Under the pieces are notes generated by a model. That model saw only the letters and a program-made list of their open reading frames with translations, did no database searches and was not told the origin of the DNA. Position numbers and translations under genes: made by a program. Below are positions 16,862 through 37,118 of a stretch of 58,109 bases of DNA, piece after piece. Numbering within the stretch: position 1 is the stretch's first letter; each line of letters begins with the position of its first letter. Source of the stretch: Gammaproteobacteria bacterium (GTDB lineage Bacteria > Pseudomonadota > Gammaproteobacteria > Steroidobacterales > Steroidobacteraceae); assembly GCA_028871705.1 (NCBI GenBank), contig JAGWMP010000001.1:1-58109 (forward strand). The letters run 5' to 3'.

Positions 16862-16892
16862 GGCCGACTCCCTCGGTGCGGGTCGCCGCCGT

Positions 16893-17690: not shown

Positions 17691-17697
17691 GTCGCTG

Positions 17698-19752: not shown

Positions 19753-20234
19753 GCGCCGCGCGCCGCCGGGCGCAGCGCGAGCGCGCGCGAGCCCGGGCCG
19801 AAGCCGGCGGCGGGAGCGGCGGCGCTGAGAGCGGCGATCCGGGCCGCGACTTCGGATGGAAAGGGTGTGGACGCGGGCTTGGCGCCCTGCTGCACGTGCA
19901 GCAGCATCATCTCGACCGTCGCCGCGACGGTCGCGGTCGGTGCGCTGGTGAGGGTGAAGCCGGCGTGCAGACGCTTCGCGTCGGCGCCGAGAACGCTCAC
20001 CGCGACCGCGACGCGCCCGGTCGACTTCACCTCATTGAGGAAGTGCACATGCATCTCGAGCGTATAGAGCGTGCAGTGCGTGCGCGCGCGGTAGGCGGCA
20101 TCGATGCCCAGGCGATCCATGAGCGCATCGCAGGCGCTGCTCGCGATGACGCCGTAGTACGCATCGCGCACGTGACCGTTATAGTCGATCCACTCGGGCA
20201 GGACCGGAGTTTCGTAGATGGAGATCCCGGCCAC
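19749..20234 (-). CDS. Hotdog-fold thioesterase (BKACE-associated type)
   Basis: 161 aa. PEWIDYNGHVRDAYY..TLEMHVHFL is paralogous to the C-terminal domain of the lcdH fusion. Confidence 0.75.
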   Translation of the reverse strand: MAGISIYETPVLPEWIDYNGHVRDAYYGVIASSACDALMDRLGIDAAYRARTHCTLYTLEMHVHFLNEVKSTGRVAVAVSVLGADAKRLHAGFTLTSAPTATVAATVEMMLLHVQQGAKPASTPFPSEVAARIAALSAAAPAAGFGPGSRALALRPAARGA

Positions 20235-20256
20235 GATGTGCTGGCGTGCGGCGCGC

Positions 20257-21156: not shown

Positions 21157-21192
21157 GGCGGCCCCCCGGGGCTTTGAGCGCGGATGACGTGG

Positions 21193-21216
21193 TAATATTA
21201 TGGCGATAATAATATA
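21193..21216. promoter_or_regulatory. AT-rich divergent control region: TAATATTA palindrome plus TATATTATTA (minus strand)
   Basis: TAATATTAtggcgaTAATAATATA lies between the BKACE start (21156, -) and the patD start (21269, +). The 10-mer is identical to the one at 10131-10140. Confidence 0.4.
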
Positions 21217-21268
21217 GCGGGGCGGCGTGGCGCGGCAAGCTCGCGCCGCGTCTGCGAGGAGCGCAACG

Positions 21269-22692
21269 ATGCAGACCCAGATGTTGATCGGCGGACGGCT
21301 GGTGGGCGGCGAGGGTCCCCCGGAGACGGTGCTGGATGCCGCGAGCGGTGCGCCGCTCGCCACGGTCGCCGCGGCGAGCGCCCGGCAGGTCGAGGCCGCG
21401 GTGGCGGCGGCGGAGGCGGCTTTCGACGGCTGGGCGGGAACGGCGCCGCGCGACCGTGGCGCGGCTTTGCTCAGGATCGCGGATGCGCTCGAGCGCGAGG
21501 CGGGCGCCTATGCCAGCCTCGAGTCGCGCAATACCGGCAAGCCGCTCGCCGCGATGCTCAACGACGAGATGCCGGGATCGCCGACCTGTTCCGCTATTTC
21601 GCCGGTGCCTGCCGCATCCCCCAGGGGCTGGCGGCCGGGGAATACCTGCCGGGACACACCAGCATGATCCGCCGCGACCCGGTCGGCGTCGTCGGCTCGA
21701 TCGCCCCCTGGAACTACCCGCTGATGATGGCGGCCTGGAAGATCGCCCCGGCGATCGCCGCCGGCAACACCCTGGTGCTCAAGCCTTCCGAGATGACGCC
21801 GCTCACGGTGCTGAAGCTCGGCGAGCAGCTGCGTGAGCTCCTGCCCGCGGGCGTCGTCAACATCGTGTGCGGCCGCGGGGAGCCCGTCGGCTCGGCCATC
21901 ACCGGACACCCGCGCGTGCGCATGGTGTCCCTCACCGGCGATGTCGGCACGGGGCAGAAGGTGCTGGCGGCGGCCGCCGGGAACCTGAAGCGTACGCATC
22001 TCGAGCTCGGCGGCAAGGCGCCGGTGATCGTGTTCGACGATGCGGATCTGGAGTCGGTGGTGGCCGGAGTGCGCACCTTCGCGTTCTACAACGCGGGGCA
22101 GGAGTGCACCGCGGCCAGCCGGCTCTATGCCGGCGAGCGCATCTACGAGCGCCTGGTGGCCGATCTCACCAGCGCGGTGCGCACCATCCGTCTCGGTACG
22201 CAGCAGGAAGCCGGGGTGGAGATGGGCCCGCTCATCTCCGAGCGGCAGCGCGAGCGCGTCGCCGGCATGGTGGAGCGCGCGGCGGCGGTGCCGCACATCG
22301 AGGTCACCACCGGCGGCAGGAAGCGCGCCGGCAGCGGCTTCTTCTACGAGCCGACCGTGATCGCCGGCGCCCGTCAGCAGGATGAGATCGTGCAGCGCGA
22401 GGTGTTCGGTCCGGTGGTCTCCGTCACGCGCGTCAGCGATGCAAGCGAAGCGGTGCGCTGGGCGAATGACTCGGAGTACGGCCTGGCATCCTCGGTGTGG
22501 ACCCGCGACGTCGGCCGCGCCATGCAGGTCGCCGCGAAGCTGCAGTACGGCGCCACCTGGATCAATACCCACTTCGCCACCGTGAGCGAGATGCCGCACG
22601 GCGGATTCAAGCGTTCCGGCTACGGCAAGGATCTCTCGGTCTATGCGCTCGAGGACTACACCGTGGTGCGGCACGTGATGGTGAAACTCTAG
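21269..22692 (+). pseudogene. patD: Gamma-aminobutyraldehyde dehydrogenase (PatD/ALDH9-like) interrupted by a 1-nt deletion near 21575
   Basis: Both track ORFs (21227..21667 and 21664..22692) are collinear with E. coli PatD. Reading switches frame at ccgGG|atc (21572-21579). Restoring one G gives ..[39 protein letters not shown] lies upstream of the ATG at 21269. Confidence 0.8.
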
Positions 22693-23804
22693 TGCGCGCC
22701 GGCGGGCGCCTCGCGCTCGCGGCGCTGCTCGGCGCCCTCGGCCTCGCCGGCTGCGGGCGCGGAGCGCACGGCGGCGCCGAGGAGCCGGTGCTGCACGTCT
22801 ACAACTGGGCCGACTACATCGGCAAGGATACGATCGCCGACTTCGAGCGCACCACCGGCATCCGGGTCGATTACGACACTTACGATTCGGATGAGACCCT
22901 CGAGGCCAAGATGATGGCCGGGGATTCGGGTTACGACGTGGTGAGCACCTCCACCGACTACTTCGCGCGGCAGATCAAGGCCGGCATCTACCGGCCGCTC
23001 GACCGCACCAGGCTCACCAACTGGAAGAATCTCGATCCCCACGTGCTCGCCATCGAGGCGGCGGCCGATCCCGGCAACGCCCACGCGGTGCCGTATCTGC
23101 ACGCCGTCAACGGCTTCGCCTACAACATCGACCAGGTGAAGGCGCGCATGCCCGACGCGCCGGTCGACAGCCTCGATCTGATCTTCAAGCCCGAGCTGAT
23201 CGCGCGCTTCGCCGACTGCGGCGTCTCCTTCCTCGATTCCCCCGAGGATGTACTGCAGCTCGCGCTCAACTACCTGCACCTCGACCCCAACAGCCAGAGC
23301 GCCGCCGATTACCAGCAGGCGGAGAAGCTGCTGATGAGCGTGCGCCAGTACGTGAAGGCCTTCGACTCCTCGGAGTACATGAACGGCCTGATCAACGGCG
23401 AGTTCTGCATCTCCATGTCCTGGTCCGCCGACTACTCCACCTCGCGCGACCGGGCACGCGCCGCCGGGGTCGACGTGCATCTCGCCTTCACCGTGCCGAA
23501 GGAGGGCGCCAACGGCACCTACGACGCGCTGCTCATTCCGGCGGATGCGCCGCATCCCGGCAATGCCCTGAAGTTCCTCAATTTCATCCTCGAGCCGAAG
23601 GTGATCGCCGCCATCACCAACGAGATCCACTACGGCAACGACAACCGCGCGGCCGACCCGTACGTCGACCCGCGGATCCTCGACGATCCGACCATCTATC
23701 CGACGCCCGCGGTCGAGGCGCGCCTCTATTACGCGCAGGAGGTGCCGCCGGCGCTCGAGCGTATCCGCACGCGCACCTGGACGCGCATCAAGACGACATT
23801 GTGA
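22692..23804 (+). CDS. Polyamine-type (PotF/PotD-family) periplasmic substrate-binding lipoprotein
   Basis: GTG at 22692 shares its G with the patD TAG stop. Lipobox LAGC. VLHVYNWADYI..DYDTYDSDE..DVV is the PotF/PotD signature. Confidence 0.85.
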   Translation: MRAGGRLALAALLGALGLAGCGRGAHGGAEEPVLHVYNWADYIGKDTIADFERTTGIRVDYDTYDSDETLEAKMMAGDSGYDVVSTSTDYFARQIKAGIYRPLDRTRLTNWKNLDPHVLAIEAAADPGNAHAVPYLHAVNGFAYNIDQVKARMPDAPVDSLDLIFKPELIARFADCGVSFLDSPEDVLQLALNYLHLDPNSQSAADYQQAEKLLMSVRQYVKAFDSSEYMNGLINGEFCISMSWSADYSTSRDRARAAGVDVHLAFTVPKEGANGTYDALLIPADAPHPGNALKFLNFILEPKVIAAITNEIHYGNDNRAADPYVDPRILDDPTIYPTPAVEARLYYAQEVPPALERIRTRTWTRIKTTL

Positions 23805-23810
23805 TCATCG

Positions 23811-23833
23811 GCCCGCCACCTGCGGTGGCGGGC
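23811..23833. terminator. Perfect 10-bp stem / 3-nt loop hairpin between convergent genes
   Basis: GCCCGCCACC tgc GGTGGCGGGC begins 7 nt after the stop of the potF-like gene and lies 34 nt before the potI-like stop. There is no obvious U-tract. Confidence 0.5.
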
Positions 23834-23867
23834 ATTGCCCCGTGCCGGGCGCGAGATCGCGCGCCGT

Positions 23868-24698
23868 TCAACGTCCCGCGAGCTGGATCTCGAGCGCGCG
23901 GCGGCGCTCGGCGCGCCGCATCAGCCACCCGGCCGTGATGATGAGCGCGCCCACGCCGCAGACGATGAGGCTCGCGAGCGCGTTGATGTCGGGGCTCACT
24001 CCGAGCTTGACCTTCGAATAGATCACCATCGGCAGGGTGCTGGCGCCGGGTCCGGACACGAAGCTGGAGATGACGAGGTCATCGAGCGACAGCGTGAAGC
24101 ACAAGAGCCAGCTCGAGACGATCGCCGGGGCGATGATCGGCAACGTGATCTCGAGGAAGGCGCGCGCGGGGCCGGCTCCGAGATCCATCGCGGCTTCCTC
24201 CAGCGCGCGGTCGGCGCTCGCGAGGCGCGCCTGCACCGTGATGGTCACGTAGGCGGTGCAGAAGGTCACGTGCGAGATCACGATGGTGGTGAAGCCGCGA
24301 TGCGGCCAGGAGATGAGCTGCACCATCGACACGAACAGCAGCAGCTGCGTGATGCCGGTGATGATCTCGGGCATGACGAGCGGCGCGTTCACCATGCCGG
24401 TGAGCAGGAGTCGGCCGGGGAAGCGGGTGAAGCGCACCAGGGCGACGGCCGCCAGCGTGCCGAGGATCACCGCGCCGGTGGAGGCGCTCACCGCCACCTC
24501 GAGCGACAACAGCGCCGCATCCAGCAGCTGGCGGTTGTGCCACAGCGTGCCGTACCACGCGGTGGAGAAGCCTCCCCAGACGTTGACCAGCGGCGAGGCG
24601 TTGAAGGAGTAGGCGATCAGCACCAGGATCGGGATGTAGAGGATCGCGATGCCGAAGCACAGCACCGTGAAGGGAAAGAGCGAGCCGTGCCTTTCCAC
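23868..24698 (-). CDS. ABC transporter permease (PotI/PotC type)
   Basis: 276 aa with six hydrophobic spans. The EAA-loop-like sequence EEAAMDLGAGPARAF is present. Confidence 0.85.
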   Translation of the reverse strand: MERHGSLFPFTVLCFGIAILYIPILVLIAYSFNASPLVNVWGGFSTAWYGTLWHNRQLLDAALLSLEVAVSASTGAVILGTLAAVALVRFTRFPGRLLLTGMVNAPLVMPEIITGITQLLLFVSMVQLISWPHRGFTTIVISHVTFCTAYVTITVQARLASADRALEEAAMDLGAGPARAFLEITLPIIAPAIVSSWLLCFTLSLDDLVISSFVSGPGASTLPMVIYSKVKLGVSPDINALASLIVCGVGALIITAGWLMRRAERRRALEIQLAGR

Positions 24699-24704
24699 CG
24701 GACT

Positions 24705-25595
24705 TCAGGCCTCGAGCTGGCGCACGTTGTAGTACTGGTAGATCGCGATCGGACCCACCAGCAGCAGCAGGAATGCGATCGAGACCGCGGCCGCCACCGG
24801 CCAGTCGTGGTTGCCGAAGAACTCATCCCACAGCACCCGCCCGATCATGAGATTGTTGGGCCCGCCGAGGAGCGAGGGGATGACGAACTCGCCCACCGCC
24901 GGGATGAACACCAGCATGGAGCCGGCGATCACGCCCGGCACCGAGAGCGGCAGCGTAATGTCGCGGAACGCGCGCCACGGCGTGCTGCCGAGATCGGCGG
25001 CCGCCTCGAGCAGCGTCGGGTCGAGCTTCTCGAGCGTCGCGAACAGCGGCAGCACCATGAACGGCAGGTAGGAGTAGATGATGCCGAGGTAGACGGCGAG
25101 GTTGGTGCGCATGATGCGCAGCGGCTCGTGGATCAGGCCGAGGTGCAGCAGCACCGTGTTGAGCAGGCCGTTGTCGCGGATGATGCCCTCGAGCGCGTAA
25201 ACGCGCAGCAGGAACGAGGTCCAGAACGGCAGCATGATGACCAGCAGCAGCACGCTCTGCGTGGCGCGCGGCGCACGGGCGATCGCGTAGGCCATCGGGT
25301 AGCCGAGCGCCAGACACACGAGCGTCGCGAAGAAGGCGGTGCGCAGCGAGAAGAGGTATGCGACCCCGTACACCTCATCGGTCAGCAGGTAGCGGTAGTT
25401 GGCGAGCGTCGCGGCGATCTTCAGGTGATGATCGGGCGTGAACACCAGCACGTCGGTGAAGGGCGGCACGTGTGCCGCGGCTTCGGCGAAACTGATCTTG
25501 AAGGCGAAGGCGAACGGAACCAGGAAGAACACGAGCAGGAACACGAGCGGCGGCAGGATGATGAGCCAGCGCCTGGGAGTGCCGCCTGTTTTCAT
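24705..25595 (-). CDS. ABC transporter permease (PotH/PotB type)
   Basis: The internal ATG at 25595 gives MKTGGTPRRWLIILPPLVFL... The EAA loop LEAAADLGSTPWRAF is present. It ends 6 nt before the next permease gene. Confidence 0.85.
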   Translation of the reverse strand: MKTGGTPRRWLIILPPLVFLLVFFLVPFAFAFKISFAEAAAHVPPFTDVLVFTPDHHLKIAATLANYRYLLTDEVYGVAYLFSLRTAFFATLVCLALGYPMAYAIARAPRATQSVLLLVIMLPFWTSFLLRVYALEGIIRDNGLLNTVLLHLGLIHEPLRIMRTNLAVYLGIIYSYLPFMVLPLFATLEKLDPTLLEAAADLGSTPWRAFRDITLPLSVPGVIAGSMLVFIPAVGEFVIPSLLGGPNNLMIGRVLWDEFFGNHDWPVAAAVSIAFLLLLVGPIAIYQYYNVRQLEA

Positions 25596-25659
25596 GATGC
25601 GCGCGCTTCGCCTCGGGCCGTGGCGCGCTATTCTGCGGGAAAAGTGCGCGTACCGGTAC

Positions 25660-26328
25660 TCACCGCCCGCGGCGCGCGCGCTGCGCCACGGGTCCGGGGA
25701 ACTGTCCCGGGAAGACCGAGCGCAGATAGGCGAGGGCGCGCGCCACCAGCGCGCGCCGGTCGATGTTCTCCTCGCTCTGGAAGGCGATGCCCTGCCAGAG
25801 CACCTCGAGCACACCGATCAGCCCCAGGGCGACGCCGTCGGCGTCCAGATGCCGGGCGCCGGTCTGCGCGATCAGCGTGCCGACCAGCTCGCGCACCAGG
25901 CGGGCGAAGTCCTCGTCCTTGCCGCCGCAGATGTCGAGGTACTCCTGGCGCGAGCTCGCCTCGCCCCAGAAGGAGTACCACACCGATACCTTGCGCGGAC
26001 TCGCGATCTCGGGGTCGAGATAGAGCTCGACCAGCAGCCCGAGCGCCACCACCGGGGAATGCTTGAGCGCAGTCACCGGCTTGAGTACCCGCTCGCCGAA
26101 CTCGGAGGCGAGATATTCGAGCGCCGCGACCAGCAGCGCGGCCTTGGAGTTGAAGTAGAAGCGCACGATGCCGGGGGAGAGCCCGGCGATCGCGACCACC
26201 CGGCTTACCGTGGTGCGCGAGGGGCCGTAGATATGCAGCGCCGAGATGCATGCCTCGATCAGGCGCTGCCGGGCGCGCGTGCGCCGCGCATCGTCCGCGG
26301 CGGCGGCGCTCGGGGCCGCTGCCGCCAT
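25660..26328 (-). CDS. TetR-family transcriptional regulator
   Basis: ATG at 26328 is in frame with track ORF 25660..26952. HTH segment TTVSRVVAIAGLSPGIVRFYFNSKAAL. It starts 23 nt downstream of the Rieske gene stop. Confidence 0.8.
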   Translation of the reverse strand: MAAAAPSAAAADDARRTRARQRLIEACISALHIYGPSRTTVSRVVAIAGLSPGIVRFYFNSKAALLVAALEYLASEFGERVLKPVTALKHSPVVALGLLVELYLDPEIASPRKVSVWYSFWGEASSRQEYLDICGGKDEDFARLVRELVGTLIAQTGARHLDADGVALGLIGVLEVLWQGIAFQSEENIDRRALVARALAYLRSVFPGQFPGPVAQRARRGR

Positions 26329-26351
26329 GCGGGCCGCGGTGCGCGCCTGGC

Positions 26352-27521
26352 TCAAGCGAAGCGCACCGGCGCGCTGGGCAGGCGCACCTCGGGGATGCGC
26401 GCGCGCAGCAGGTTGTGAAATTCGAGCATCCAGGTCTCGATCGTCGAGAGCGGCCCCGGCCGGTAGGCGCTGTCGGCGATGCCGCGCTGCAGCCGCTCGC
26501 ACAGCTCGCGGTCCTCGTTGTTCACCTGCATGTTGATGCGGTTGCCGAGCCAGCGCACCAGGCGCATCTCGCGCCGGTCGTCGGCAAGTCCGAAGGAGGC
26601 GCTCCTGATCAGCGCCTTGCCGGGGCCGCGCGGCAGCACCTGGAAGAAATCCATCTGCTCCGGAAAGATGTCGATGCCATGGTTCGGCAGGTAGCTGTAG
26701 AAGCGCCAGCTGCGCCGCTCGCCCTCCGGCAGGTGCGGCGCGGTCACCGCACTCACGTGCTTCTGATAGACGCGCTCGCTCCAGTGCGGCGAGGGTGCCG
26801 CGCGCATCCAGCTGATGCCGCGGCCGATGCCGGGCGCGCCGCGCTGATCCTCGTAGTCCGGGGTGAACATGCGATTCAGGCCCGGGTGGCCGATCGGCAC
26901 GTGGTAGGACTCGAGGTAGTTGTCCATCGCGATCTTCCAGTCGACCTCCCACTCCTCGCGGAACAGCGGCTGGATCGGCACCAGCTCATCGAGCCGGTAG
27001 GGCGCGAGCTCCTCCATGAACGGCGCCCAGGCCACCGAGGGCGGCGGCGGCGGCTCCGCGCCGAGGCATACCCACACGAACCCGAGCGCCGTCTCGTGCG
27101 GCACGGTGCCGAGGCTGTGCACGCGCAGATCGAGGTCCGGGAAGCTATCGCGTGCCGGCGTCGCGAGCAGCGAGCCGTCGTAGCGATAGGTCCAGCCGTG
27201 ATATGGGCAGGTGATGCGGCCGGTGCAATGCCCGCTCCCCTCGAGGAGCCGCGTGCCGCGGTGGCGGCAGGTGTTGCGCAGCGCGCGGATCGCGCCGTTC
27301 GCATCCCGCAGCACGATGACGCTGTCCCCGGCGAGCTCGTAAGTGACGAAGTCCCCGGCGCGCGGAAGCTGGCTCACGTGGCAGGCGATCTGCCAGCTCG
27401 GCTTGAGGATCCGTTCGAGCTCGAGCCGGGTCATCTCGGGGTGGTTGTACACCCAGGCCGGCAGCGAATGCGGCGGCGTGGCCGGAGGGGCTTCGACGGT
27501 GCGGGCGGTAGCAGGGCTCAT
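26352..27521 (-). CDS. Rieske [2Fe-2S] non-haem-iron oxygenase alpha subunit, GbcA/CntA/choline-monooxygenase-like
   Basis: Rieske motif CRHRGTRL..(17)..CPYHGWTY. Mononuclear iron motif DNYLESYHVPIGHP. Domain order matches GbcA as recalled. Confidence 0.85.
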   Translation of the reverse strand: MSPATARTVEAPPATPPHSLPAWVYNHPEMTRLELERILKPSWQIACHVSQLPRAGDFVTYELAGDSVIVLRDANGAIRALRNTCRHRGTRLLEGSGHCTGRITCPYHGWTYRYDGSLLATPARDSFPDLDLRVHSLGTVPHETALGFVWVCLGAEPPPPPSVAWAPFMEELAPYRLDELVPIQPLFREEWEVDWKIAMDNYLESYHVPIGHPGLNRMFTPDYEDQRGAPGIGRGISWMRAAPSPHWSERVYQKHVSAVTAPHLPEGERRSWRFYSYLPNHGIDIFPEQMDFFQVLPRGPGKALIRSASFGLADDRREMRLVRWLGNRINMQVNNEDRELCERLQRGIADSAYRPGPLSTIETWMLEFHNLLRARIPEVRLPSAPVRFA

Positions 27522-27571
27522 GGCGGCGGTCCCGGGCTGATTTATACGCTTGTTTAATTTTAGCCTAAAAA

Positions 27572-27589
27572 ACTATATGATCATATAGT
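27572..27589. promoter_or_regulatory. Perfect 18-bp palindrome, candidate operator in a divergent promoter region
   Basis: ACTATATGA|TCATATAGT sits in the AT-rich 110-bp spacer between the Rieske start (27521, -) and the aminotransferase start (27632/27647, +). It overlaps -10-like hexamers (TATATG, TATAGT). Confidence 0.5.
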
Positions 27590-27646
27590 CAGTTACCGCA
27601 GCGGCCGGTCGCCTGTCCCGGCCTCTTCACTATGGGAGCGAGTGCC

Positions 27647-28975
27647 ATGGCGAGAACCATGACGAAGAACCAGGAGCATTTCCGGCGAGCGCTGACCAGG
27701 CTGCCGCTCGGCGTGGCGTCGAATTTCCGCTACTGGGGCGAGGACCGCACCATCTACGTGAAGGAAGGGCGCGGAGCGCGCATTACCGACCTCGACGGCA
27801 ACGTCTACGTCGACTACCGCATGGGCTACGGGCCCTCGATCCTGGGATACGCCGATGAGCGCGTGGACGCCGCGGCCCGCGAGGGCATGAAGGTCGGCGG
27901 CGTGTTCGCACTCTCCACCGAAGGCGAGTACGAGGTCGCGACGCGCATCTCGAACATGGTGCCCGCCGCGCAGCTCGTACGCTTCTCCAACTCCGGTACC
28001 GAGGCGGTGATGGCGGCGCTGCGCCTGGCGCGCGCATTCACGAAGCGCGACGACTACGTGATCCTCGAGGGCAGCTACCACGGCCTCTTCGATGCCGCCA
28101 TGTGGTACACGCCCATGGACAAGTGGCAGCAGGTGGGCGACCCCGAGGTGCACCCCTACAGCGAGGGCGTGCCGCTCGCGACGCGCCATTTCGCCCACTT
28201 CGTGCAGGCGAACGATGCCAACCAGCTCGAGGACGTCCTCAAGCGCCACGGCGACCGCATCGCCTGTCTGCTGGTCGAGCCGATCATGGGCAATTGCCTG
28301 GGCATCGCCGCCGAGCCCGAGTACGTGCGTGCGGCGCGGGCGCTCTGCGACCGCTATGGCGTGGTGATGATCATCGACGAGGTGAAGACCGGCTTTCGCG
28401 TGGCACGCGGCGGCGTGCAGGAGCTCTACGGCGTGCGCGCCGACCTCTGTACCTTCGCCAAGGCGGTCGCCAACGGCTATCCGATCTCGGTGCTCGCCGG
28501 GCGCGAGGACATCATGCGCAAGCTCGGCAAGGGCGTGGCCCACGGCGGCACTTACACCGCGCACCCGGTGTCGCTGGCGGCGGCGGCCAAGACCCTCGAG
28601 ATCCTGGCCGAGACCGACGCGCTCGCCTCGCTCGCCGCCTACGGTACGCGCCTCAGGAGTGGCATGAGCCAGATCCTCAAAGCCCGCGGCATCGCCCACA
28701 GCTTCGTCGGCCACCCCTCCATGAGCGGCCTGTACTTCGCCCACGATCCGCCGCGCACCTACCGCGACTGGAAGGGGAGCGATTACACCTTCTACGACGC
28801 CACCGCGAAGGTGCTGCACGATGAGTGCATCCTGTGCGAGCCGGATTCGCGCGAGCCGTGGTTCGTGTCCGCGGCCCACGACGAGTCGTGCCTCAAGGAC
28901 ACGCTCGGCGCCTTCGAGATCGCCATCGACCGCACCCTGAGCTCCCTCGGCACGACCCGCCGGGTTCCGGCCTGA
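27647..28975 (+). CDS. Class-III PLP aminotransferase, glutamate-1-semialdehyde aminomutase-like
   Basis: YVDYRMGYGPSILGY, RFSNSGTEAVMAALRLAR, IIDEVKTGFR (PLP Lys) and GGTYTAHP. GGGAG lies 8 nt upstream of the ATG at 27647. An alternative start is at 27632. Confidence 0.85.
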   Translation: MARTMTKNQEHFRRALTRLPLGVASNFRYWGEDRTIYVKEGRGARITDLDGNVYVDYRMGYGPSILGYADERVDAAAREGMKVGGVFALSTEGEYEVATRISNMVPAAQLVRFSNSGTEAVMAALRLARAFTKRDDYVILEGSYHGLFDAAMWYTPMDKWQQVGDPEVHPYSEGVPLATRHFAHFVQANDANQLEDVLKRHGDRIACLLVEPIMGNCLGIAAEPEYVRAARALCDRYGVVMIIDEVKTGFRVARGGVQELYGVRADLCTFAKAVANGYPISVLAGREDIMRKLGKGVAHGGTYTAHPVSLAAAAKTLEILAETDALASLAAYGTRLRSGMSQILKARGIAHSFVGHPSMSGLYFAHDPPRTYRDWKGSDYTFYDATAKVLHDECILCEPDSREPWFVSAAHDESCLKDTLGAFEIAIDRTLSSLGTTRRVPA

Positions 28976-28985
28976 CGAGCGCACC

Positions 28986-30578: not shown

Positions 30579-32158
30579 GTGCGGCGCGGCCGGCGCGCGG
30601 CGCGCGCTACGACTGCATCGTCGTCGGCGGCGGCCACAACGGACTCACCTGCGCGGCTTATCTCGCCCGCGCCGGCCGGTCGGTGCTGGTGCTCGAGGCG
30701 GCGGACCGGGTGGGCGGCGCGGCGGTGACGCGCGAGTTCGCGCCGGGCTTTCGCGTCTCGGCCTGCGCCCACCTGCTGCATCTGATGCCCGGCAAGCTCA
30801 TCGCCGAGCTGAACCTGAGCGCGCACGGACTGAAGCTCGCCGCCGCGCAGCTGCCGACCACCGCGTTGTCGGCCGACGATGCGCACCTGCCGCTCGGTCC
30901 CGAGGGCGCGGCGGTACTCGCCGCGCAGTCCGCGCACGATGCGGCCGCGTACCCCGCCTATGGCGCGCGCCTCGCGCGGCTTGCGGCACGGTTGCGTCCC
31001 ATCCTCGGCGCGACGCCGCCGCGGCTCGGCACGGCGGGCTGGCGCGACCGGGCGGCGCTGCTCGGGCTCGGCCTGCGGCTGCGCGCGCTCGGCCGCCGCG
31101 ACATGCGGGAGCTCCTGCGCATCGGCCCGATGTGCGTGCAGGATCTGCTCGATGAGCACTTCGAGTCCCCGCTCCTCAAGGGGGCGCTCGGCTTCGATGC
31201 GGTGCTCGGCACCAACTACGGACCGCGCTCGCCGGGCACGGTCTTCACGCTGCTCTATCGGCTGGCGGCGGCAGGGGAGGAGGGCGGCGGCCTCGCGCAA
31301 CCGCTCGGCGGGCTCGGCGCGCTCTCCGAGGCGCTCGCCGGTGCGGCGCGCGCGGCGGGCGCGCAGGTGCGCACCGGCGCGGTGGTGAAGCGCATCCTGG
31401 TGCGCGACGACCGCGCGGCCGGCGTCGTGCTCGCGAGCGGCGAGGAGCTCGCAGCGGGCGCCGTGGTCTCGAGCGCCGACCCGAAGACCACCTTCCTCGG
31501 CCTCCTCGGAGCTGAGCATCTCGATGCGGGCTTCGTGCGCCGCATCGTGCACCTGCGCGCGCGCGGACTCGCGGCGAAGCTGCACCTGGCGCTGGACGCG
31601 GCGCCGCGGTTCGCAGGACTCGATCCCGCCGCGCTCAGGGGCCGGCTGCTGTGGGCGCCGTCGCCCGAGCACATCGAGCGCGCCTTCAATCACGCCAAGT
31701 ACGGCGAATTCTCCGCGAGCCCGATACTCGAGATCACCGTGCCGACGGTGTCCGACCCGGCGCTCGCGCCCGCGGGCGCCCACGTGCTCTCGGTGGTCGC
31801 TCAATACGCGCCTTTCGCGCTCGCGGGAGGCTGGGCCGAGGGCCGCCGGCGCTTCACGGAGCTCCTCATCGACACGCTCACGGCGCTCGCGCCCGGGCTG
31901 CGGGCGCAGGTGCGGCACGCCGAGCTGCTGAGTCCCGAGGACCTCGAGCGCGAGTTCCGCATCACGGGCGGGCACTGGCATCACGCCGAGCTCGCACTGG
32001 ATCAGTTCTTCATGCTGCGCCCGGTGCCGGGCGTTGCGCAGTACCGCGCGCCGGTCGGCGGGCTGTATCTGTGCGGCGCGGGCTGCCACCCGGGCGGCGG
32101 CGTCATGGGGCTCGCCGGGCGCAACGCCGCGCGCGAGGTCGTGAGAGAGGCGGCGTAA
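30575..32158 (+). CDS. NAD(P)/FAD-dependent oxidoreductase, CrtI/PYROXD2-like, paralog 3
   Basis: GTG at 30575 overlaps the upstream TGA (GTGA). YDCIVVGGGHNGL. C-terminal GLYLCGAGCHPGGGVMG. The remaining N-terminal part of track ORF 29378..32158 is a shadow frame. Confidence 0.8.
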   Translation: MSAARPARGARYDCIVVGGGHNGLTCAAYLARAGRSVLVLEAADRVGGAAVTREFAPGFRVSACAHLLHLMPGKLIAELNLSAHGLKLAAAQLPTTALSADDAHLPLGPEGAAVLAAQSAHDAAAYPAYGARLARLAARLRPILGATPPRLGTAGWRDRAALLGLGLRLRALGRRDMRELLRIGPMCVQDLLDEHFESPLLKGALGFDAVLGTNYGPRSPGTVFTLLYRLAAAGEEGGGLAQPLGGLGALSEALAGAARAAGAQVRTGAVVKRILVRDDRAAGVVLASGEELAAGAVVSSADPKTTFLGLLGAEHLDAGFVRRIVHLRARGLAAKLHLALDAAPRFAGLDPAALRGRLLWAPSPEHIERAFNHAKYGEFSASPILEITVPTVSDPALAPAGAHVLSVVAQYAPFALAGGWAEGRRRFTELLIDTLTALAPGLRAQVRHAELLSPEDLEREFRITGGHWHHAELALDQFFMLRPVPGVAQYRAPVGGLYLCGAGCHPGGGVMGLAGRNAAREVVREAA

Positions 32159-32160
32159 GC

Positions 32161-33372
32161 ATGGCGACGACCAGCGAACCGCACTATCGCCGGCCGCTGC
32201 TGCCGACGCCGTTCCACGCGCGCGCCCGTGCCCTCGCGCAGTCGGACGCCTTCATCCCCTGGGCGGGCTATACCACGGTCGACGTGTTCACGACCGCGGA
32301 GCAGGAATACTTCGCGATCCGCAACGCCGCCTCGGTCTACGACCTGACGCCGATGGTCAAGTACCGCATCGCCGGCGCCGATGCGCTGCGCTTCCTCAAC
32401 CGCCTGCTGACGCGCGACATCGGCAAGCTGCGCCCCGGGCGCGTGGCCTACGGCGTGTGGTGCAACGACGCCGGTCACCTGATCGACGACGGCACGGTCT
32501 TCTGCCTCGGCGCGGGCGAATATCGCCTCTGCACCGCCGAGCGGCAGCTCGACTGGCTGCTCGACTCGGCGATCGGCTTCGACGTTGCGATCAGCGAGGT
32601 CACCGAGGAAGTCGCGGCGCTCGCGCTCCAGGGTCCGACCTCCTACTCCGTACTGCGCAAGGCCGGAGTCGCCGGCGTCGAACGTCTCAAGCCCTTCGAG
32701 CTCGGCAACTTTACGGTGCCGGCGGCCGGCGATGCGCCGCTCATGGTGTCGCGTACCGGCTTCACCGGGGACCTGGGGTACGAGCTGTGGATGCAACCTA
32801 AGGACGCCGCGGCGGTGTGGGACGTCCTCATGGAGGCCGGCCGCACCCGTGGCATCCGCGCGATCGGCTCGCGCGCTCTCAACATCGCGCGCATCGAGGC
32901 GGGGTTCGTGCTGCCGAACGTGGACTTCATTCCGAGCGAGCGGACTGTGTTCATCGGCACCGAGCGCTCGCCGCTCGAACTCGGCCTCGCCTGGCTGGTC
33001 GACTTCGGCAAGGGACACTTCACCGGGCGGCGGGCGCTGCTCGAGGAACAGCGCCGCGGCAGCCGCCGGCGCCTCGTCGGCCTCGACATCGAGGGCACCA
33101 AGCCCGCCCACAACGCGCTGCTCTATAGCGATCGCGCGCTGCGCCGCCAGGCCGGCAGCGTGACGTCCGCGGCGTGGTCGCCCACCACCAAGCGTAACCT
33201 CGCGCTCGCCATGGTGGATGCACCGCACTTCTCGACCGGGAGTACGCTGTGGGCCGAGATCTATCTGAATCGCGAGCTGGTGTGGGAGCGGCGCGTGGTG
33301 CGTGCGCGGGTCGTCGAGCGGCCGTTCTTCGCCCCCGAGCGCCGCCGCGTTACGCCACCCGCCGAGTTCTGA
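32161..33372 (+). CDS. Aminomethyltransferase-fold (GcvT-like, folate-binding) protein
   Basis: ATG falls 2 nt after the upstream TAA. EYFAIRNAASVYDLTPMVKYRIAG.DA..FLN, ALQGP and SRTGFTGDLGYELW are GcvT-family signatures. Confidence 0.75.
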   Translation: MATTSEPHYRRPLLPTPFHARARALAQSDAFIPWAGYTTVDVFTTAEQEYFAIRNAASVYDLTPMVKYRIAGADALRFLNRLLTRDIGKLRPGRVAYGVWCNDAGHLIDDGTVFCLGAGEYRLCTAERQLDWLLDSAIGFDVAISEVTEEVAALALQGPTSYSVLRKAGVAGVERLKPFELGNFTVPAAGDAPLMVSRTGFTGDLGYELWMQPKDAAAVWDVLMEAGRTRGIRAIGSRALNIARIEAGFVLPNVDFIPSERTVFIGTERSPLELGLAWLVDFGKGHFTGRRALLEEQRRGSRRRLVGLDIEGTKPAHNALLYSDRALRRQAGSVTSAAWSPTTKRNLALAMVDAPHFSTGSTLWAEIYLNRELVWERRVVRARVVERPFFAPERRRVTPPAEF

Positions 33373-33388
33373 GCGAAGGAGCCGCGCC

Positions 33389-34534
33389 GTGATCGCGACC
33401 CAGCAGAAGCAGAATGCCGACCGCCCCTGGCTCGATCCCGCCGCCACGCCGCAGATCGTCATCGACGGCGTCAGCAAGGCCTACGCCGGCTTCACCGCCG
33501 TCGATGCGGTGAGCCTCAGCATCTACAAGGGCGAGATGTTCGCCCTCGTCGGCGCCTCCGGCTGCGGCAAGACGACGCTGCTGCGGATGCTGGCGGGGTT
33601 CGTCGAGCCGACCGGCGGCCGCATCCTCATCGACGGCGTGCCGATGAGCGGCGTGCCGCCGCACGAGCGGCCGGTGAACATGATGTTCCAGTCCTACGCG
33701 CTGTTCCCGCACATGACGGTCGAGCGCAACGTCGGCTACGGCATCAGCCGCATGAAGATGGACGCCGCGACACGCAAGAGCCGCATTCTCGAGGCGCTCG
33801 AGATGGTGCAGCTTACGCACGTCGCCGCGCGCAAACCGCATCAGTTGTCCGGCGGGCAGCGCCAGCGCGTGGCGCTGGCGCGGGCACTGATCCGCCGGCC
33901 CAAGGTGCTGCTGCTCGATGAGCCGCTGTCGGCGCTCGACAAGAAGCTGCGCGAGCAGACGCAGTTCGAGCTGATGGACCTGCAGTACAAGGTTGGGATC
34001 ACCTTCATCGTCGTGACCCACGATCAGGACGAGGCCATGGCGCTCGCTAGCCGCATCGCCGTGATGGACCACGGCAAGGTGGTGCAGGTGGGCACTCCGT
34101 CCGAGATCTACGAATTTCCGGCGAGCCGCTTCGTCGCCGACTTCGTCGGCACCACCAACCTCTTCGAAGGGACGGTGACGCGCTGCGAGCCGGGTTTGAT
34201 CACCGTGCATTGCCCCGAGACCGGCGGCGAGCTGCTGGTGGACGAGGACGGGCGTTTCGCGCCCGGACAGCGCGTCTGGGTGGCGCTGCGGCCGGAGAAG
34301 ATCCGCCTCGGCAAGGAGCCCCCGAGCGGCGCGCGCGTCAACCAGCTGCGCGGCATGGTGTGGGAGCTCGGCTATCTCGGCAACCGCTCCACCTATCACA
34401 TCAAGACCACCAGCGGCAAAGTGGTGATGGCGTTCTCGCAGAACGAGCGGCGTACGTCGGAGTGGGCGATCGACTGGAGCGACGAGGTATACGTGAGCTG
34501 GGATGCGGACGCCGCGGTGCTGCTGCAATCCTAG
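33389..34534 (+). CDS. ABC transporter ATPase, PotA/PotG type
   Basis: GTG at 33389 follows AAGGAG. Walker [10 protein letters not shown], signature LSGGQRQR and Walker B LLLDEP, plus a C-terminal TOBE-like domain. Confidence 0.9.
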
Positions 34535-34568
34535 GGTTTGCAAAAACGAAGACAGGGGAGAGTGGCCT

Positions 34569-37118
34569 ATGTATACATCCGGATATTCGCCGATCGTCGT
34601 GGGCGCACTGGCATTGGGCTTTGCGGCGCTGCTGCCGTCCGGGATCCTGCGCGCCGAGGAGGCCGCGGCCGGGCCGGCCGCACCGGCGAGCACTCAGAGC
34701 GCGAGCCAGCCCGAGCATCCGCTCGAGGAGATCGTGGTGACCGCGACGCGGCGCGAGGAGTCGCTCAGCAAGATCCCGGTCAGCGTCACCGCGCTCACCC
34801 AGGCGGACATGGACGACAAGGGCATCAAGGATTTCCTCGACGTGGCCCGGTTCACCCCCGGCGTGTCGATCGATAACTCGGCGACCAACGCCATCTCGAT
34901 CCGCGGCATCTCCTCCTCGGGCGGTGCCGGCACGACCGGCATCTACATCGACGACACGCCTATTCAGATGCGCTCGGTGGGGTTCAACCCCGACGACACG
35001 CTGCCGAAGACCTTCGACCTCGAGCGCGTCGAGATCCTGCGCGGCCCGCAAGGCACCCTGTTCGGCGCCGGCTCCGAGGGCGGCGCCGTGCGCTACATCC
35101 TCACCCAGCCGAGCGTCAGCAGCTCGAGCACCTACATGCGCAGCGAGGTCTCCTATACGCAGTACGGGCAGCCCAACGAAGAGCTGGGGATAGCCCACGG
35201 CGCGCCGATCATCGACGGGACGCTGGGCTTTCGCGCGAGCGCCTGGTACCGCGAGGACGGCGGCTGGATCAACCGCGTCGACCCCACTTCCGCCGCCGTG
35301 GTGGACCGCAACATCAATCGCAGCGGCACTTTCGTCGGGCGCCTGGCGGCGGTGTGGCAGCCGGCGAGCTCGGTCAGCGTCACGCCGAGCATGCTCTACC
35401 AGCACCAGAAGAAGGACGACGACTCGACCTACTGGCCGGCCTACTCCAATCCGGGCGCGGGGCAGTTCAACACCGCCACCCCGGAGCGCATTCCCAATGA
35501 CGACGAGTACTACCTGCCGGCGGTGAAGCTGCAGTGGGATCTCGGCGGCAGTCAGTTCATCGCCAACGCGTCCTACTTCCACCGCAAGCAGATCACCGCC
35601 TATCAGGGCACGGTCTACGACCTGAGCTACTACCAGACAGCCGGCGAATACTTCGGTGTCGGCTGCGAGGCCACCGGGGCGCCGGTCGGCTGCCCGTGGT
35701 TTCCGCTGCTCGACGGCAGCGGCATCCACCTGCCCCCGGGCTTCAGCGGCTACAACACGCCCAACGTCATGACCAACACGCAGCAGAGCTATACGGGAGA
35801 AGCGCGCTGGCAGTCGGCTGACGACAGCTCCAGGCTCCGCTGGACGATCGGCGCGTTCTGGCAGCTCGCCAAGGAAGGCAGCATCGAGGAGCTCAAGGAC
35901 ACCCAGATCGTCCCGTTCTTCCAGTACCTGTACGGGATCGACCCGACTGACCCGGCCTATTACGGTCCGTACTACTCGTGTCCGACCAACGCCAACTACA
36001 CGGCGATTCCGGCGTGCGACATCTACTACAACGCCAATACCACCTTCGATCGGCAGATCGCCGGCTACGGGGAGCTGAGCTACGCCTTTACCGACTGGTT
36101 CCGGCTGACCCTCGGGGAGCGCGTCGCGCATACCGAGTTCACCATGACGCACTACTCGGATGGCCTCGAGAACTTCGGTCCGAGCCCGGCCACTGCCGCG
36201 CAGAGCGAGACCCCCAACACGCCGAAGGCGACTCTGTCCTTTCAGGTCGATCCCAACGATCTCTACTATGCCACCTACGCCAAGGGTTTCAGGGTCGGCG
36301 GCGGCAACGCACCGCTGCCGGCGTACTGCGACGCGGATCTGGCGGCCGCCGGCTACCCGAACGGCGCACCGCTCACCTACAAGTCCGATTCGACGCAGAG
36401 TTACGAGATCGGCTCCAAGAACCTGTTCGGCGATTCGTTGCGGATCGCGACCAGCGTCTATTACATCAAGTGGGACAGCATCCAGCAGAGCGTGTACGTG
36501 GCGGGTGCCTGCGGACTGCAGTTCACAGACAACCTGGGAACCGCGGTCGCCTGGGGCGGCGATCTGCAGGCGCAGATGGCGCTCGGGCCGCTCAACATCG
36601 ATTTCGGCACCGGCTACACCAGTGCGCGCTATACGAAGGATTCCCCGCTCGGCTGCCAGAGCGGCCCGTTGGCGGTGCCGTGCAAGTCGAGCAACGGGGA
36701 TGCGATCTCCGGGCAGGCGGCCATCGACTACGCGCCGGGGCTCAATTCGCCGTTCACCGTGGCGCTCGGCGTCGAGTACGGTTTCAACCTCGGGCAGCAT
36801 ACGGCCTTCGTGCGCGCCGACTGGGAGTACGAGAGCCGCAATCCCTGGCTGTCTACCCTGCAGAATCCCAACGACACCGCGCAGTACAACCCATTCACCT
36901 ACACCCTGCCGTCGACCAGCTTTACCTCGCTGCGCGCCGGCGTGAACCTCGGCGAGTGGCAGATCGCGGCCTTCCTCGACAATCTGTTCGATTCACACAC
37001 GGTGACCAACTACGCGCTCGGCCAACCCGCCGGAGCGGCCACCGTGCAGGAGAACGACTACACGTTCCGGCCGCGCACCATCGGCATCACCGCCACCTGG
37101 CATGCGCACGGCCACTAG
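34569..37118 (+). CDS. TonB-dependent outer-membrane receptor
   Basis: Signal peptide, then plug-domain start EEIVVTATRREESL..IPVSV and VEILRGPQGTLFG, followed by a long beta-barrel rich in Y/G/N/T. It starts 34 nt after the ATPase gene. Confidence 0.85.
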   Translation: MYTSGYSPIVVGALALGFAALLPSGILRAEEAAAGPAAPASTQSASQPEHPLEEIVVTATRREESLSKIPVSVTALTQADMDDKGIKDFLDVARFTPGVSIDNSATNAISIRGISSSGGAGTTGIYIDDTPIQMRSVGFNPDDTLPKTFDLERVEILRGPQGTLFGAGSEGGAVRYILTQPSVSSSSTYMRSEVSYTQYGQPNEELGIAHGAPIIDGTLGFRASAWYREDGGWINRVDPTSAAVVDRNINRSGTFVGRLAAVWQPASSVSVTPSMLYQHQKKDDDSTYWPAYSNPGAGQFNTATPERIPNDDEYYLPAVKLQWDLGGSQFIANASYFHRKQITAYQGTVYDLSYYQTAGEYFGVGCEATGAPVGCPWFPLLDGSGIHLPPGFSGYNTPNVMTNTQQSYTGEARWQSADDSSRLRWTIGAFWQLAKEGSIEELKDTQIVPFFQYLYGIDPTDPAYYGPYYSCPTNANYTAIPACDIYYNANTTFDRQIAGYGELSYAFTDWFRLTLGERVAHTEFTMTHYSDGLENFGPSPATAAQSETPNTPKATLSFQVDPNDLYYATYAKGFRVGGGNAPLPAYCDADLAAAGYPNGAPLTYKSDSTQSYEIGSKNLFGDSLRIATSVYYIKWDSIQQSVYVAGACGLQFTDNLGTAVAWGGDLQAQMALGPLNIDFGTGYTSARYTKDSPLGCQSGPLAVPCKSSNGDAISGQAAIDYAPGLNSPFTVALGVEYGFNLGQHTAFVRADWEYESRNPWLSTLQNPNDTAQYNPFTYTLPSTSFTSLRAGVNLGEWQIAAFLDNLFDSHTVTNYALGQPAGAATVQENDYTFRPRTIGITATWHAHGH

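Follow-up and report, generated by a model that had tools for sequence, protein, structure and literature searches.

Our analysis concerns a 58,109-nucleotide stretch of contig JAGWMP010000001.1 (assembly GCA_028871705.1) from a member of the Steroidobacteraceae, hereafter called the window, and within it a gene cluster at positions 21157-37118 that probably encodes some system of N-demethylation and transamination. With a chance close to, but short of, even, the cluster would serve to import and break down an N-methylated ammonium compound that is diamine-like and probably quaternary, the identity and reactions of which we infer from the protein sequences. We would class it as a pathway of N-demethylation in which some of the enzymes belong to new families, with an overall logic like that of GbcAB/DgcAB/Sox, of Stc2/StcD and of the flavoprotein-GcvT fusions. 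Its arrangement is not a product of chance: it recurs in dozens of independent genomes.

Composition and conservation of the gene cluster

As the G+C content of the window is about 70%, genes were called from G+C at third codon positions and then compared with the NCBIfam (release 20) and Pfam profile libraries; "cut-off" denotes below the curated threshold of a model in bits. All the genes named in an earlier note on this DNA were recovered at or near the same coordinates; the gene set of its range stood, but 21157, where that range begins, marks the beginning of the spacer ahead of the aldehyde dehydrogenase gene and not the start of that gene. The features are, along the forward strand:

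21193-21214, spacer between the BKACE gene of the neighbouring operon and the ALDH gene: operator B, an AT-rich near-palindrome
21269-22692, plus strand: PatD/ALDH9-type aminoaldehyde dehydrogenase (ALDH), with a -1 frameshift at 21574-21576
22692-23804, plus strand: PotF-like substrate-binding lipoprotein (SBP), assigned with the PotF model, with an LAGC lipobox
23811-23835, between the convergent SBP and PotI genes: GC-rich hairpin GCCCGCCACC-TGC-GGTGGCGGGC, read from the sequence
23868-24698, minus strand: PotI-like permease (NCBIfam PotI)
24705-25595, minus strand: PotH-like permease (NCBIfam PotH)
25660-26328, minus strand: BetI-type TetR regulator (Pfam TetR_N and TetR_C_6), within the Rieske-PotHI operon
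26352-27521, minus strand: alpha subunit of a Rieske non-haem-iron oxygenase of the CntA/Stc2/GbcA group (Pfam Rieske and Ring_hydroxyl_A)
27572-27589, spacer between the Rieske and AT genes: operator A, a perfect 18-bp palindrome
27632-28975, plus strand: class-III GSAM/GntE-like aminotransferase (AT), first gene of the plus-strand operon
28986-30578, plus strand: FP1, a flavin adenine dinucleotide (FAD) protein of the CrtI/amine-oxidase superfamily (Pfam Amino_oxidase, DAO and NAD_binding_8)
30575-32158, plus strand: FP2, a paralogue of FP1, with a GTGA overlap with FP1
32161-33372, plus strand: stand-alone GcvT-like folate-binding protein (Pfam GCV_T and GCV_T_C)
33389-34534, plus strand: PotG-like ABC ATPase with a TOBE domain (PotG and potA models)
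34569-37118, plus strand: TonB-dependent receptor (plug and barrel models), last gene of the plus-strand unit

For FP1, the most conserved gene of the system, confirmed relatives were counted in no fewer than 590 genomes of Gamma-, Beta- and Alphaproteobacteria, one genome having been scanned per species. Protein clusters with an identity to it of 81% or higher number more than 120 and come mostly from soil and peat metagenome-assembled genomes (MAGs) of Steroidobacteraceae, and the alphaproteobacterial copies are 62-66% identical. The best 80 of the at least 590 relatives were kept as loci (designated by L numbers), 47 of which have 10 kb on both sides and are termed full loci. The order FP1-FP2-GcvT is invariant in these (47/47), and the genes for AT (46 of 47), the Rieske protein (45), PotG (46), PotH (43), PotI (43), the TetR regulator (42), SBP (35) and ALDH (30) accompany it. 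Gene-neighbourhood conservation, which the earlier note had left to be checked, was thereby found to extend across three proteobacterial classes, in which the set is co-conserved with the Pot genes; because the arrangement recurs across genomes, we take the genes to be co-conserved and the parts of the transporter to belong together.

In the window, as in most of its relatives in the Steroidobacterales, the transporter is divided among three units, and this split layout is itself kept in the order. In Fuscovulum ytuae potFGHI is contiguous, and everything behind a TetR gene forms one operon, AT-FP1-FP2-GcvT-Rieske-Rieske-SBP-ATPase-permease-permease. Shinella, Rhizobium sp. SL42, Ensifer and Parasedimentitalea carry a TetR gene and FP1-FP2-GcvT beside a Pot-type transporter with one to three Rieske genes, and their aminotransferase is a different class-III protein of the PRK07036 type. 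In MAGs of Comamonadaceae, Burkholderiaceae and Rhodospirillales the same set is joined by an ADP-forming CoA ligase and an acyl-CoA dehydrogenase (ACAD), and some related clusters contain OYE-type, StcD-like flavoproteins. ALDH is PatD-like in the window and PuuC/BADH-like in other clades. The non-orthologous replacement of both AT and ALDH suggests that the two steps belong to the pathway and are required. RefSeq names in the cultured relatives are all generic. Megablast of the core against plasmids returned only short ATPase matches and one 73% match in Ensifer. Because the system occurs in cultured strains (F. ytuae YMD61, Shinella zoogloeoides ATCC 19623, Ensifer adhaerens, Rhizobium sp. 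SL42 and Parasedimentitalea marina W43), it is directly testable.

This recurrence bears on the possibility that there is no single system, and that an ordinary route of putrescine uptake and transamination (PotFGHI, AT and PatD) is merely interleaved with unrelated oxidoreductases. The Pot and PatD similarities are indeed the strongest annotations of the region, and the three units lie under two different operators. Nevertheless, the interleaving is kept over dozens of genomes and becomes one operon in Fuscovulum, PotG starts 16 nt behind the GcvT-like gene, and the aminotransferase of the window lineage is not of the PatA/SpuC type, all of which makes such a coincidence very improbable.

Sequence relationships of the enzymes and the importer

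No component reaches a curated cut-off for a named enzyme in NCBIfam except ALDH, with a PatD subfamily model; PotG additionally exceeds the broad potA subfamily model (389 bits, cut-off 356). The statement of the earlier note that the set matches no characterised pathway was borne out, as the equivalog cut-offs for gbcA, crtI, gcvT and potFGHI were all missed. In the full text of open-access papers we found no description of the gene set; NCBIfam gives it no function, and the assignments from NCBIfam and Pfam are generic.

FP1 and FP2, both of about 530 residues and 41% identical, are translationally coupled and retain a dinucleotide-binding motif, as read from their translations. Their DAO matches are partial and lie at the dinucleotide-binding site, the flavoproteins being of the PF01593/CrtI type; they score 285 and 245 bits, respectively, with the CrtO model (cut-off 1000) and 125 and 130 bits with crtI_fam (TIGR02734, cut-off 238). 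Modelling of FP1 with AlphaFold2 on the basis of 35 close homologues gave a structure of low confidence, with a mean predicted local distance difference test score of 57. Nothing relevant was found in the literature on PYROXD2. A third CrtI-family flavoprotein, 44% identical to FP1 and 41% to FP2, is encoded at 1602-3194, directly behind a hydantoinase/oxoprolinase-type gene truncated by the start of the window (region 2-3194); it may be another member of the FP family in a different pathway.

The GcvT-like protein finds its best PDB match in the C-terminal domain of trimethylamine N-oxide demethylase (Tdm; 2.8e-54), followed by T-proteins and then by domains of dimethylglycine dehydrogenase (DMGDH), SoxA and dimethylglycine oxidase (DMGO; 1e-22 to 1e-28). 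It belongs to the fold family PF01571 plus PF08669 and stays below the cut-offs of the Tdm model (263 bits vs 1100), of the gcvT models TIGR00528 (165 vs 236) and PRK00389 (217 vs 300) and of the DmdA model (123 vs 410); no gcvH or gcvP gene occurs in the window. By sequence, its nearest relatives appear to be the folate-binding modules that capture one-carbon (C1) units in N-demethylases, and the GcvT-family proteins known to us all transfer a C1 unit.

FP1 and FP2 might, alternatively, not be N-demethylases, and the GcvT-like protein might have another folate-linked role. The flavoproteins could then function as CrtI-like desaturases or isomerases, with an acyl-CoA or an unsaturated amine as substrate, or as polyamine dehydrogenases that cleave C-N bonds in spermidine-like secondary amines. 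Their nearest solved structure is the phytoene desaturase CrtI. An ADP-forming CoA ligase and an ACAD occur with the triad in Gamma-, Beta- and Alphaproteobacteria, recalling DmdABCD, in which a GcvT-type demethylase is combined with a CoA ligase, an ACAD and a hydratase, and relatives carry polyamine-flavoured accessory genes (an acetylpolyamine-amidohydrolase-like gene, a GNAT gene and a gamma-glutamyltransferase). We nonetheless consider this improbable: GcvT-family proteins transfer C1 units, the partners are of N-methyl-specific types (CntA/Stc2-like Rieske, MttB and OYE/DgcA-like proteins), and the annotated genes of the window include none for carotenoids or lipids.

The Rieske protein reaches 154 bits with the GbcA model (cut-off 670), its N-terminal half alone being aligned, and its best PDB matches are Stc2 (3VCA, 4QUP, 3N0Q) and CntA (6Y8J). 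It contains CRHRG...CPYHGW, the CxH...CxxH motif, and a stretch WKiamDNYlEsYHvpigHP that aligns column for column with WKvivDNYmEcYHcgpaHP of CntA, the Stc2 counterpart being ENnrEcYHcssnHP. The E-x-Y-H-x4-H-P motif within it comprises the iron ligands and the bridging glutamate; the replacement of the canonical bridging aspartate by glutamate is a mark of the CntA group. Judged by these residues the protein carries the signature of the CntA/Stc2/GbcA quaternary-amine group, good alignment with Stc2 and CntA being limited to about 200 N-terminal residues and the substrate pocket not being comparable. BetI models match the TetR regulator at 25660-26328 (E 3e-19) and TetR2, a second regulator described below (E 5e-17).

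Two further observations concern this oxygenase in relatives. One family of Rieske paralogues scores 273 bits with the GbcA model over its full length. Moreover, in L052 (5582-7228), with orthologues in about 44 loci, a BetI-type TetR gene reads through into the Rieske-domain region as a single open reading frame of about 548 codons; this is a fusion of regulator and Rieske protein, or else a pair of genes that no stop codon separates.

The aminotransferase falls below the cut-offs of the GntE model (437 bits vs 525) and of the HemL subfamily model (352 vs 398), and retains the lysine that binds pyridoxal phosphate and the equivalent of GSAM Arg32, which binds the substrate carboxylate. The 372 C-terminal residues of ALDH alone obtain 652.8 bits with the PatD subfamily model NF010000 (cut-off 615), 617.6 bits being reached with the equivalog TIGR03374 (cut-off 909), and succinate-semialdehyde dehydrogenase models give the ALDHs about 300 bits, with cut-offs of about 650.

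The split Pot-type importer proposed in the earlier note is real, one SBP, one PotH, one PotI and one PotG being spread over three transcription units. Searches of the whole 58 kb with each Pot protein (tblastn) returned a single copy of each, that is, no second Pot copy in the window with which the parts could pair. The translational coupling of SBP to ALDH was likewise confirmed: the GTG of the former overlaps the TAG of the latter by 1 nt. Model scores are 388 bits for PotF (cut-off 636), 452 for PotG (613), 357 for PotH (489) and 331 for PotI (476). SBP is about 50% identical to Escherichia coli PotF and retains eight identical ligand residues (W37, D39, Y40, S85, W244, D247, D278 and Y314), the changes in the pocket being E185D, which is conservative, S38A, F276T and S87D, which adds an acidic residue. 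All four acidic positions of the PotF site and four of the five aromatic ones are kept, and the pocket of the window's SBP thus reads, at the sequence level, as diamine-like but altered. Beta- and alphaproteobacterial orthologues gain a tryptophan at position 276, which gives an aromatic cage; Rhizobiaceae-type SBPs lack three of the four acidic residues and possess an aromatic cage, like betaine binders.

The hairpin in the 63-nt gap between the SBP and PotI genes looks like a bidirectional terminator; a terminator scan of the region called nothing useful, and the hairpin escaped it because it has no T-run. The TonB-dependent receptor is lineage-specific, with the same position in 17 of the 47 full loci. 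In 19 loci (L027-L063, about 15400-16900) the place that it holds in the window is occupied, between PotG and a carnitine 3-dehydrogenase-like gene (CDH), by a gene for a secreted protein of about 400 residues of the alkaline-phosphatase/sulfatase superfamily, which may liberate the substrate from an extracellular ester.

Operators and the adjacent carnitine genes

The spacer from which the Rieske and AT units diverge had been described as bearing a palindrome, and indeed contains the perfect 18-bp ACTATATGATCATATAGT, operator A. It is single in the window, and none of 100 shuffles contained a match. Its core, TATATG-N2-CATATA, precedes the AT gene by about 60 bp in some 55 related loci, many of which have it twice. 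No further operator A was found in the window, including the ALDH-SBP promoter, and the idea of one common operator for all three units was rejected on this ground. The spacer between BKACE and ALDH contains instead operator B, TAATATTAT-GGCG-ATAATAATA, which overlaps promoter-like hexamers on both strands and whose pattern, AATATTAT-N4-ATAATAAT, is distinct from that of operator A; it is kept in the same spacer of L002-L004, L006, L009, L010, L014, L015 and L022. An AT-rich element like operator B, TTATTATATTATTA (10126-10145), lies upstream of CDH in the window, with similar ones upstream of CDH in other loci.

On this evidence the three units form, as read from the sequence, two regulons, one uniting ALDH-SBP with the carnitine genes under operator B and the other uniting the remaining two units under operator A. 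Since ALDH-SBP shares operator B, expression of the binding protein would go together with that of the carnitine genes. The two operator types would be under the control of two BetI-type repressors. The claim that sharing one importer ties all the enzymes into one functional unit is thus upheld by co-conservation and fails as regards a single regulon, there being two operators; the unit would moreover extend upstream to the BKACE operon and CDH. Three relatives have extra copies of operator A between a gene for an OYE-type flavoprotein (about 700 residues, DgcA/StcD-like) and an MttB-superfamily gene, which are probably further members of the operator-A regulon:

L036, about 15659-21400: region with extra operator A
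L044, about 15546-21162: region with extra operator A
L078, about 15637-19377: region with extra operator A

Proteins of the MttB superfamily and OYE proteins of the DgcA/StcD type are enzymes that demethylate methylated amines.

The genes on the other side of operator B, and those linked with them, are the following, the operon at 15698-21156 being of the carnitine/gamma-butyrobetaine type and assigned with NCBIfam:

10187-11686, plus strand: CDH, with an HADH domain and a thioesterase domain
11706-12353, plus strand: TetR2, second BetI-type regulator, adjoining CDH (start codon approximate)
15698-16861, minus strand: ACAD
16893-17690, minus strand: crotonobetainyl-CoA hydratase-like ECH
17698-19752, minus strand: ADP-forming CoA ligase
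19749-20234, minus strand: 4HBT thioesterase
20257-21156, minus strand: BKACE

CDH comes close to the cut-off of NF005716 (578 bits vs 592); BKACE obtains 228 bits with the Kce model (cut-off 382), and no dehydrocarnitine-specific model was among the matches returned. By sequence, the operon together with CDH and TetR2 matches a route on which gamma-butyrobetaine is converted to carnitine and this to glycine betaine. CDH orthologues lie directly after PotG in about 26 related loci, and at least three layouts place carnitine genes beside the FP1 operon: BKACE by the Rieske gene, CDH-TetR2-ACAD behind PotG, and that of the window. Between CDH-TetR2 and ACAD the window has a gene for a PAS-GGDEF-EAL protein of 1113 residues (12356-15697, minus strand), which looks inserted into the carnitine cluster because CDH, TetR2 and ACAD are adjacent in relatives.

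Eight relatives have a TmpA-like Fe/2OG dioxygenase gene behind the SBP gene (361-363 bits, cut-off 400; PDB 6NPB, 3e-62), and 28 have there a gene for an HD-domain protein that is weakly PhnZ/TmpB-like, about 20 of them without the TmpA-like gene:

L013, L017, L019-L021, L030, L033 and L061, about 650-3900 of each locus: TmpA-like and HD-domain pair after SBP

This pair suggests that some relatives also convert a compound resembling a trimethylammonio-phosphonate; both TmpA and TmpB, the oxygenases of the trimethyl-aminoethylphosphonate pathway, are absent from the window. The accessory genes of relatives, to judge from their sequences, all point to trimethylammonium compounds. Phosphonate catabolism, to which the TmpA-like and HD-domain genes and the secreted alkaline-phosphatase-superfamily protein behind PotG might point, was rejected as a general explanation: neither the window nor the alphaproteobacterial versions have these genes, no PhnS model matches the SBPs, and there are no PhnW, PhnX or PhnA genes.

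With carnitine genes so close, the Rieske protein and FP1/FP2/GcvT might simply demethylate glycine betaine to glycine, with dimethylglycine and sarcosine as intermediates, the first hypothesis of the earlier note. The feeders would be carnitine, by way of CDH, BKACE and the thioesterase, a betaine-aldehyde-type ALDH, and the TmpA/TmpB-like pair of relatives. Three kinds of glycine-betaine-forming genes do surround the core in varied arrangements, the Rieske paralogues are the closest relatives of GbcA in NCBIfam, and the combination of flavoprotein and GcvT is that of dimethylglycine and sarcosine oxidases. This hypothesis, however, gives no role to an aminotransferase found in 46 of 47 loci and replaced non-orthologously, nor to a Pot-type importer with a diamine-like pocket; the alphaproteobacterial versions lack nearby glycine-betaine-forming genes, and Rhizobiaceae normally have Bmt, DMGDH and Sox. 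We therefore regard it as quite unlikely: the clustering of feeder genes agrees with it, but a near-universal AT and importer are left unexplained.

The same linkage could be read in another way, in which omega-trimethylammonio acids (gamma-butyrobetaine, carnitine, beta-alanine betaine or delta-valerobetaine) would be imported and demethylated fully by the Rieske protein and FP1/FP2/GcvT to omega-amino acids such as gamma-aminobutyrate (GABA), 4-amino-3-hydroxybutyrate and beta-alanine. AT would then form the semialdehyde and ALDH the dicarboxylate, C1 units being conserved and no trimethylamine released. The carboxylate-binding arginine of AT favours such a route, as do the tight linkage to gamma-butyrobetaine and carnitine genes with ALDH-SBP under a carnitine-type operator, the betaine-binder-like SBPs of the Rhizobiaceae type, which have lost acidic residues and have an aromatic cage, and the pairing of a class-III AT with an ALDH, classical for omega-amino acids in GabT/GabD and DavT/DavD. 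It is nevertheless unlikely, given that the SBP of the window keeps all four acidic positions of PotF and adds S87D, unfavourable for a carboxylate ligand, that the ALDHs are aminoaldehyde types (PatD, PuuC/BADH) and not GabD-like, and that it would duplicate the CoA-dependent gamma-butyrobetaine route next door. In its favour, the known aerobic and anaerobic routes of gamma-butyrobetaine differ from it (PMC8604678).

Proposed pathway, related systems and other genes of the window

Returning to the catabolism of an imported N-methylated, diamine-like compound, we propose that the TonB-dependent receptor and the PotF/G/H/I-like ABC importer would take the compound up, and that the Rieske oxygenase, with a reductase encoded elsewhere, would strip one methyl of its trimethylammonium group as formaldehyde. 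FP1 and FP2, probably as a pair, would oxidise the remaining N-methyl groups, and the GcvT-like protein would trap the C1 units as 5,10-methylene-tetrahydrofolate, copying the logic of dimethylglycine oxidase and sarcosine oxidase with different flavoprotein parts. The class-III AT would turn the primary amino group into an aldehyde, and the PatD/ALDH9-type dehydrogenase would oxidise the resulting amino- or trimethylammonio-aldehyde to the acid. The co-regulation of ALDH and SBP with the carnitine genes suggests that this aldehyde may be 4-trimethylaminobutanal, and in its fullest version the pathway would lead from a trimethylated putrescine-like amine through 4-trimethylaminobutanal, gamma-butyrobetaine, carnitine and glycine betaine to glycine. 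In another order, demethylation would come first and yield putrescine, 4-aminobutanal and GABA.

Besides the co-conservation of the set in several lineages, sequence features argue for this proposal. A quaternary amine is indicated by the CntA/Stc2 motif, the BetI-type regulators, the MttB and OYE genes at operator A, and the carnitine and TmpA-like links; capture of C1 units by the closeness of the GcvT-like protein to the folate module of Tdm; a diamine-like import by an SBP near PotF with its acidic ligand positions kept; and an aminoaldehyde step by an ALDH that scores above the PatD subfamily cut-off. The oxidative demethylation and transamination implied in the earlier note proved consistent with every test run, among them the CntA/Stc2 signature and the C1-capture-type GcvT. 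As to its second hypothesis, a methylated diamine or polyamine, the PotF-like pocket favours it over the betaine hypothesis, though not decisively.

Several points weigh against the proposal. Every step of it is deduced, and we know of no abundant natural omega-amino-alkyl-trimethylammonium substrate. FP1 and FP2 are closer to CrtI-type desaturases than to proven amine oxidases (best PDB match for their type, CrtI 4DGK, 7e-18), and to our knowledge no member of the CrtI-type family works with a GcvT module. No gene of the ferredoxin-reductase type, as needed for a Rieske reductase, was found among the annotated genes of the 58 kb. The GSAM arginine kept in AT speaks more for an amino acid than for a diamine as substrate. 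The pockets of the SBPs vary among clades, and substrates may therefore differ. The lack of operator A at the ALDH-SBP promoter means that the parts of the importer are not under single control, and in five related loci PotG lies in the FP operon with SBP and PotHI not within 10 kb. The frame of ALDH, lastly, is broken in the window, codons 1-102 (21269-21574) and the last 372 (21574-22692) lying in different frames; one G is lost (GGGG to GGG at 21574-21576, CCGGG-AT in the window vs CCGGGGAT in the 95%-identical L004). ALDH is intact in L002 and L003 (474-476 residues), and the frameshift reflects either an error of assembly in the homopolymer or a pseudogene peculiar to the strain.

Among known systems, GbcAB-DgcAB-SoxBDAG, which demethylates glycine betaine in Pseudomonas and Chromohalobacter, offers a similar division of labour, with a Rieske protein for the quaternary step, flavoproteins for the tertiary and secondary ones, a GcvT-type folate module (as in SoxA) that captures C1 units, and regulators of a betaine-sensing type. 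In the window, however, the Rieske protein is not a GbcA orthologue, a GbcB reductase is missing, both flavoproteins are of the CrtI/amine-oxidase superfamily rather than of the OYE (DgcA) or DAO (SoxB) families, GcvT is separate, and AT, an aminoaldehyde dehydrogenase and a Pot importer are integral. DMGO/DMGDH, heterotetrameric sarcosine oxidase and 4-methylaminobutyrate oxidase (MABO) likewise combine FAD-dependent amine oxidation with a tetrahydrofolate-binding module of GcvT fold, whereas here two paralogous flavoproteins of another FAD family go with an unfused folate module. Tdm provides, in its C-terminal domain, the top match of the GcvT-like protein in both PDB and NCBIfam, but its N-terminal catalytic domain of the DUF1989 type is absent from the window.

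The systems for the demethylation of stachydrine (Stc2/StcD) and hydroxyproline betaine (HpbBC/HpbA) and the carnitine monooxygenase CntAB share with the window a Rieske protein of the same sequence group and the active-site motif; the window differs in lacking a reductase gene of the CntB or Stc3/4 type. PotFGHI with PatA/PatD (YgjG/YdcW) corresponds in the four transporter parts, a class-III AT and a PatD-subfamily ALDH, here with a broken frame, and has a diamine-type pocket that is altered in the window; the transporter is here split and below the equivalog cut-offs, the AT is GSAM/GntE-like, and the set stands among demethylating enzymes. No PuuA/PauA, PuuB or SpuC-type AT of the puu/spu/pau routes occurs among the window's annotated genes. 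Carnitine and gamma-butyrobetaine catabolism to glycine betaine (CDH, the dehydrocarnitine-cleaving BKACE, betainyl-CoA thioesterase, and CoA ligase, ACAD and hydratase of the bco type) is matched in its families by the adjacent operon and CDH, with a divergent promoter and operator shared by ALDH-SBP; its genes lie, however, outside the core delimited in the earlier note, and all remain below equivalog cut-offs, CDH coming closest.

Some other candidates were rejected. Release of trimethylamine by a CntA-like enzyme followed by its oxidation would leave AT without a role. Catabolism of dimethylsulfoniopropionate or its amine in a Dmd-like manner conflicts with the distance of the GcvT-like protein from DmdA and leaves the carnitine genes unexplained. 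PbfB, PbfC and PbfD are FAD enzymes that oxidise N-methyl-aminoethylphosphonate and are inactive on the trimethyl compound, and identity with them was discarded; the paper on them mentions no Rieske or aminomethyltransferase component (PMC10590968). MtgB, of marine glycine betaine demethylation, is unrelated to FP1 (PMC12478193).

A wider claim is possible, though on balance doubtful. FP1-FP2-GcvT would be a hitherto unrecognised three-protein, folate-linked N-methylamine dehydrogenase made of CrtI-family flavoproteins, which together with the Rieske protein and AT would give hundreds of soil, freshwater and marine Proteobacteria a new route by which to demethylate a trimethylammonium compound fully, keeping the C1 units and releasing no trimethylamine. 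A trimethylated diamine or a molecule of the gamma-butyrobetaine type would be that compound, its importance in the environment having been overlooked. Carnitine, gamma-butyrobetaine, betaines and methylated polyamines are major sources of nitrogen and C1 units and precursors of trimethylamine. If true, the claim would imply a new enzyme family for amine demethylation and a sink for methylated amines in soils and waters without trimethylamine formation, and would give a function to thousands of proteins now named "NAD(P)/FAD-dependent oxidoreductase" or "aminomethyltransferase family protein".

Of the remaining genes of the window, murJ, hut and arn genes lie downstream of the TonB-dependent receptor and are unrelated. 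A sedolisin-like (pro-kumamolisin/S8) peptidase gene (7594-9540, minus strand) and a YidB-like gene (9662-10126, minus strand), located between a permease gene and CDH, have no evident tie to the amine genes. That permease, of the APC amino-acid type (6046-7578, minus strand), is preceded by a thiamine-diphosphate decarboxylase gene (3228-4859, minus strand), which passes the model for 5-guanidino-2-oxopentanoate decarboxylase (576 bits, cut-off 500), and by a divergent fold-type-I aminotransferase gene (4864-6075), best matched by GntC-like proteins. The genes at 3228-7578 look like a module of the arginine-transaminase type for a cationic amino acid, and give the impression of an island for the catabolism of cationic nitrogen compounds.

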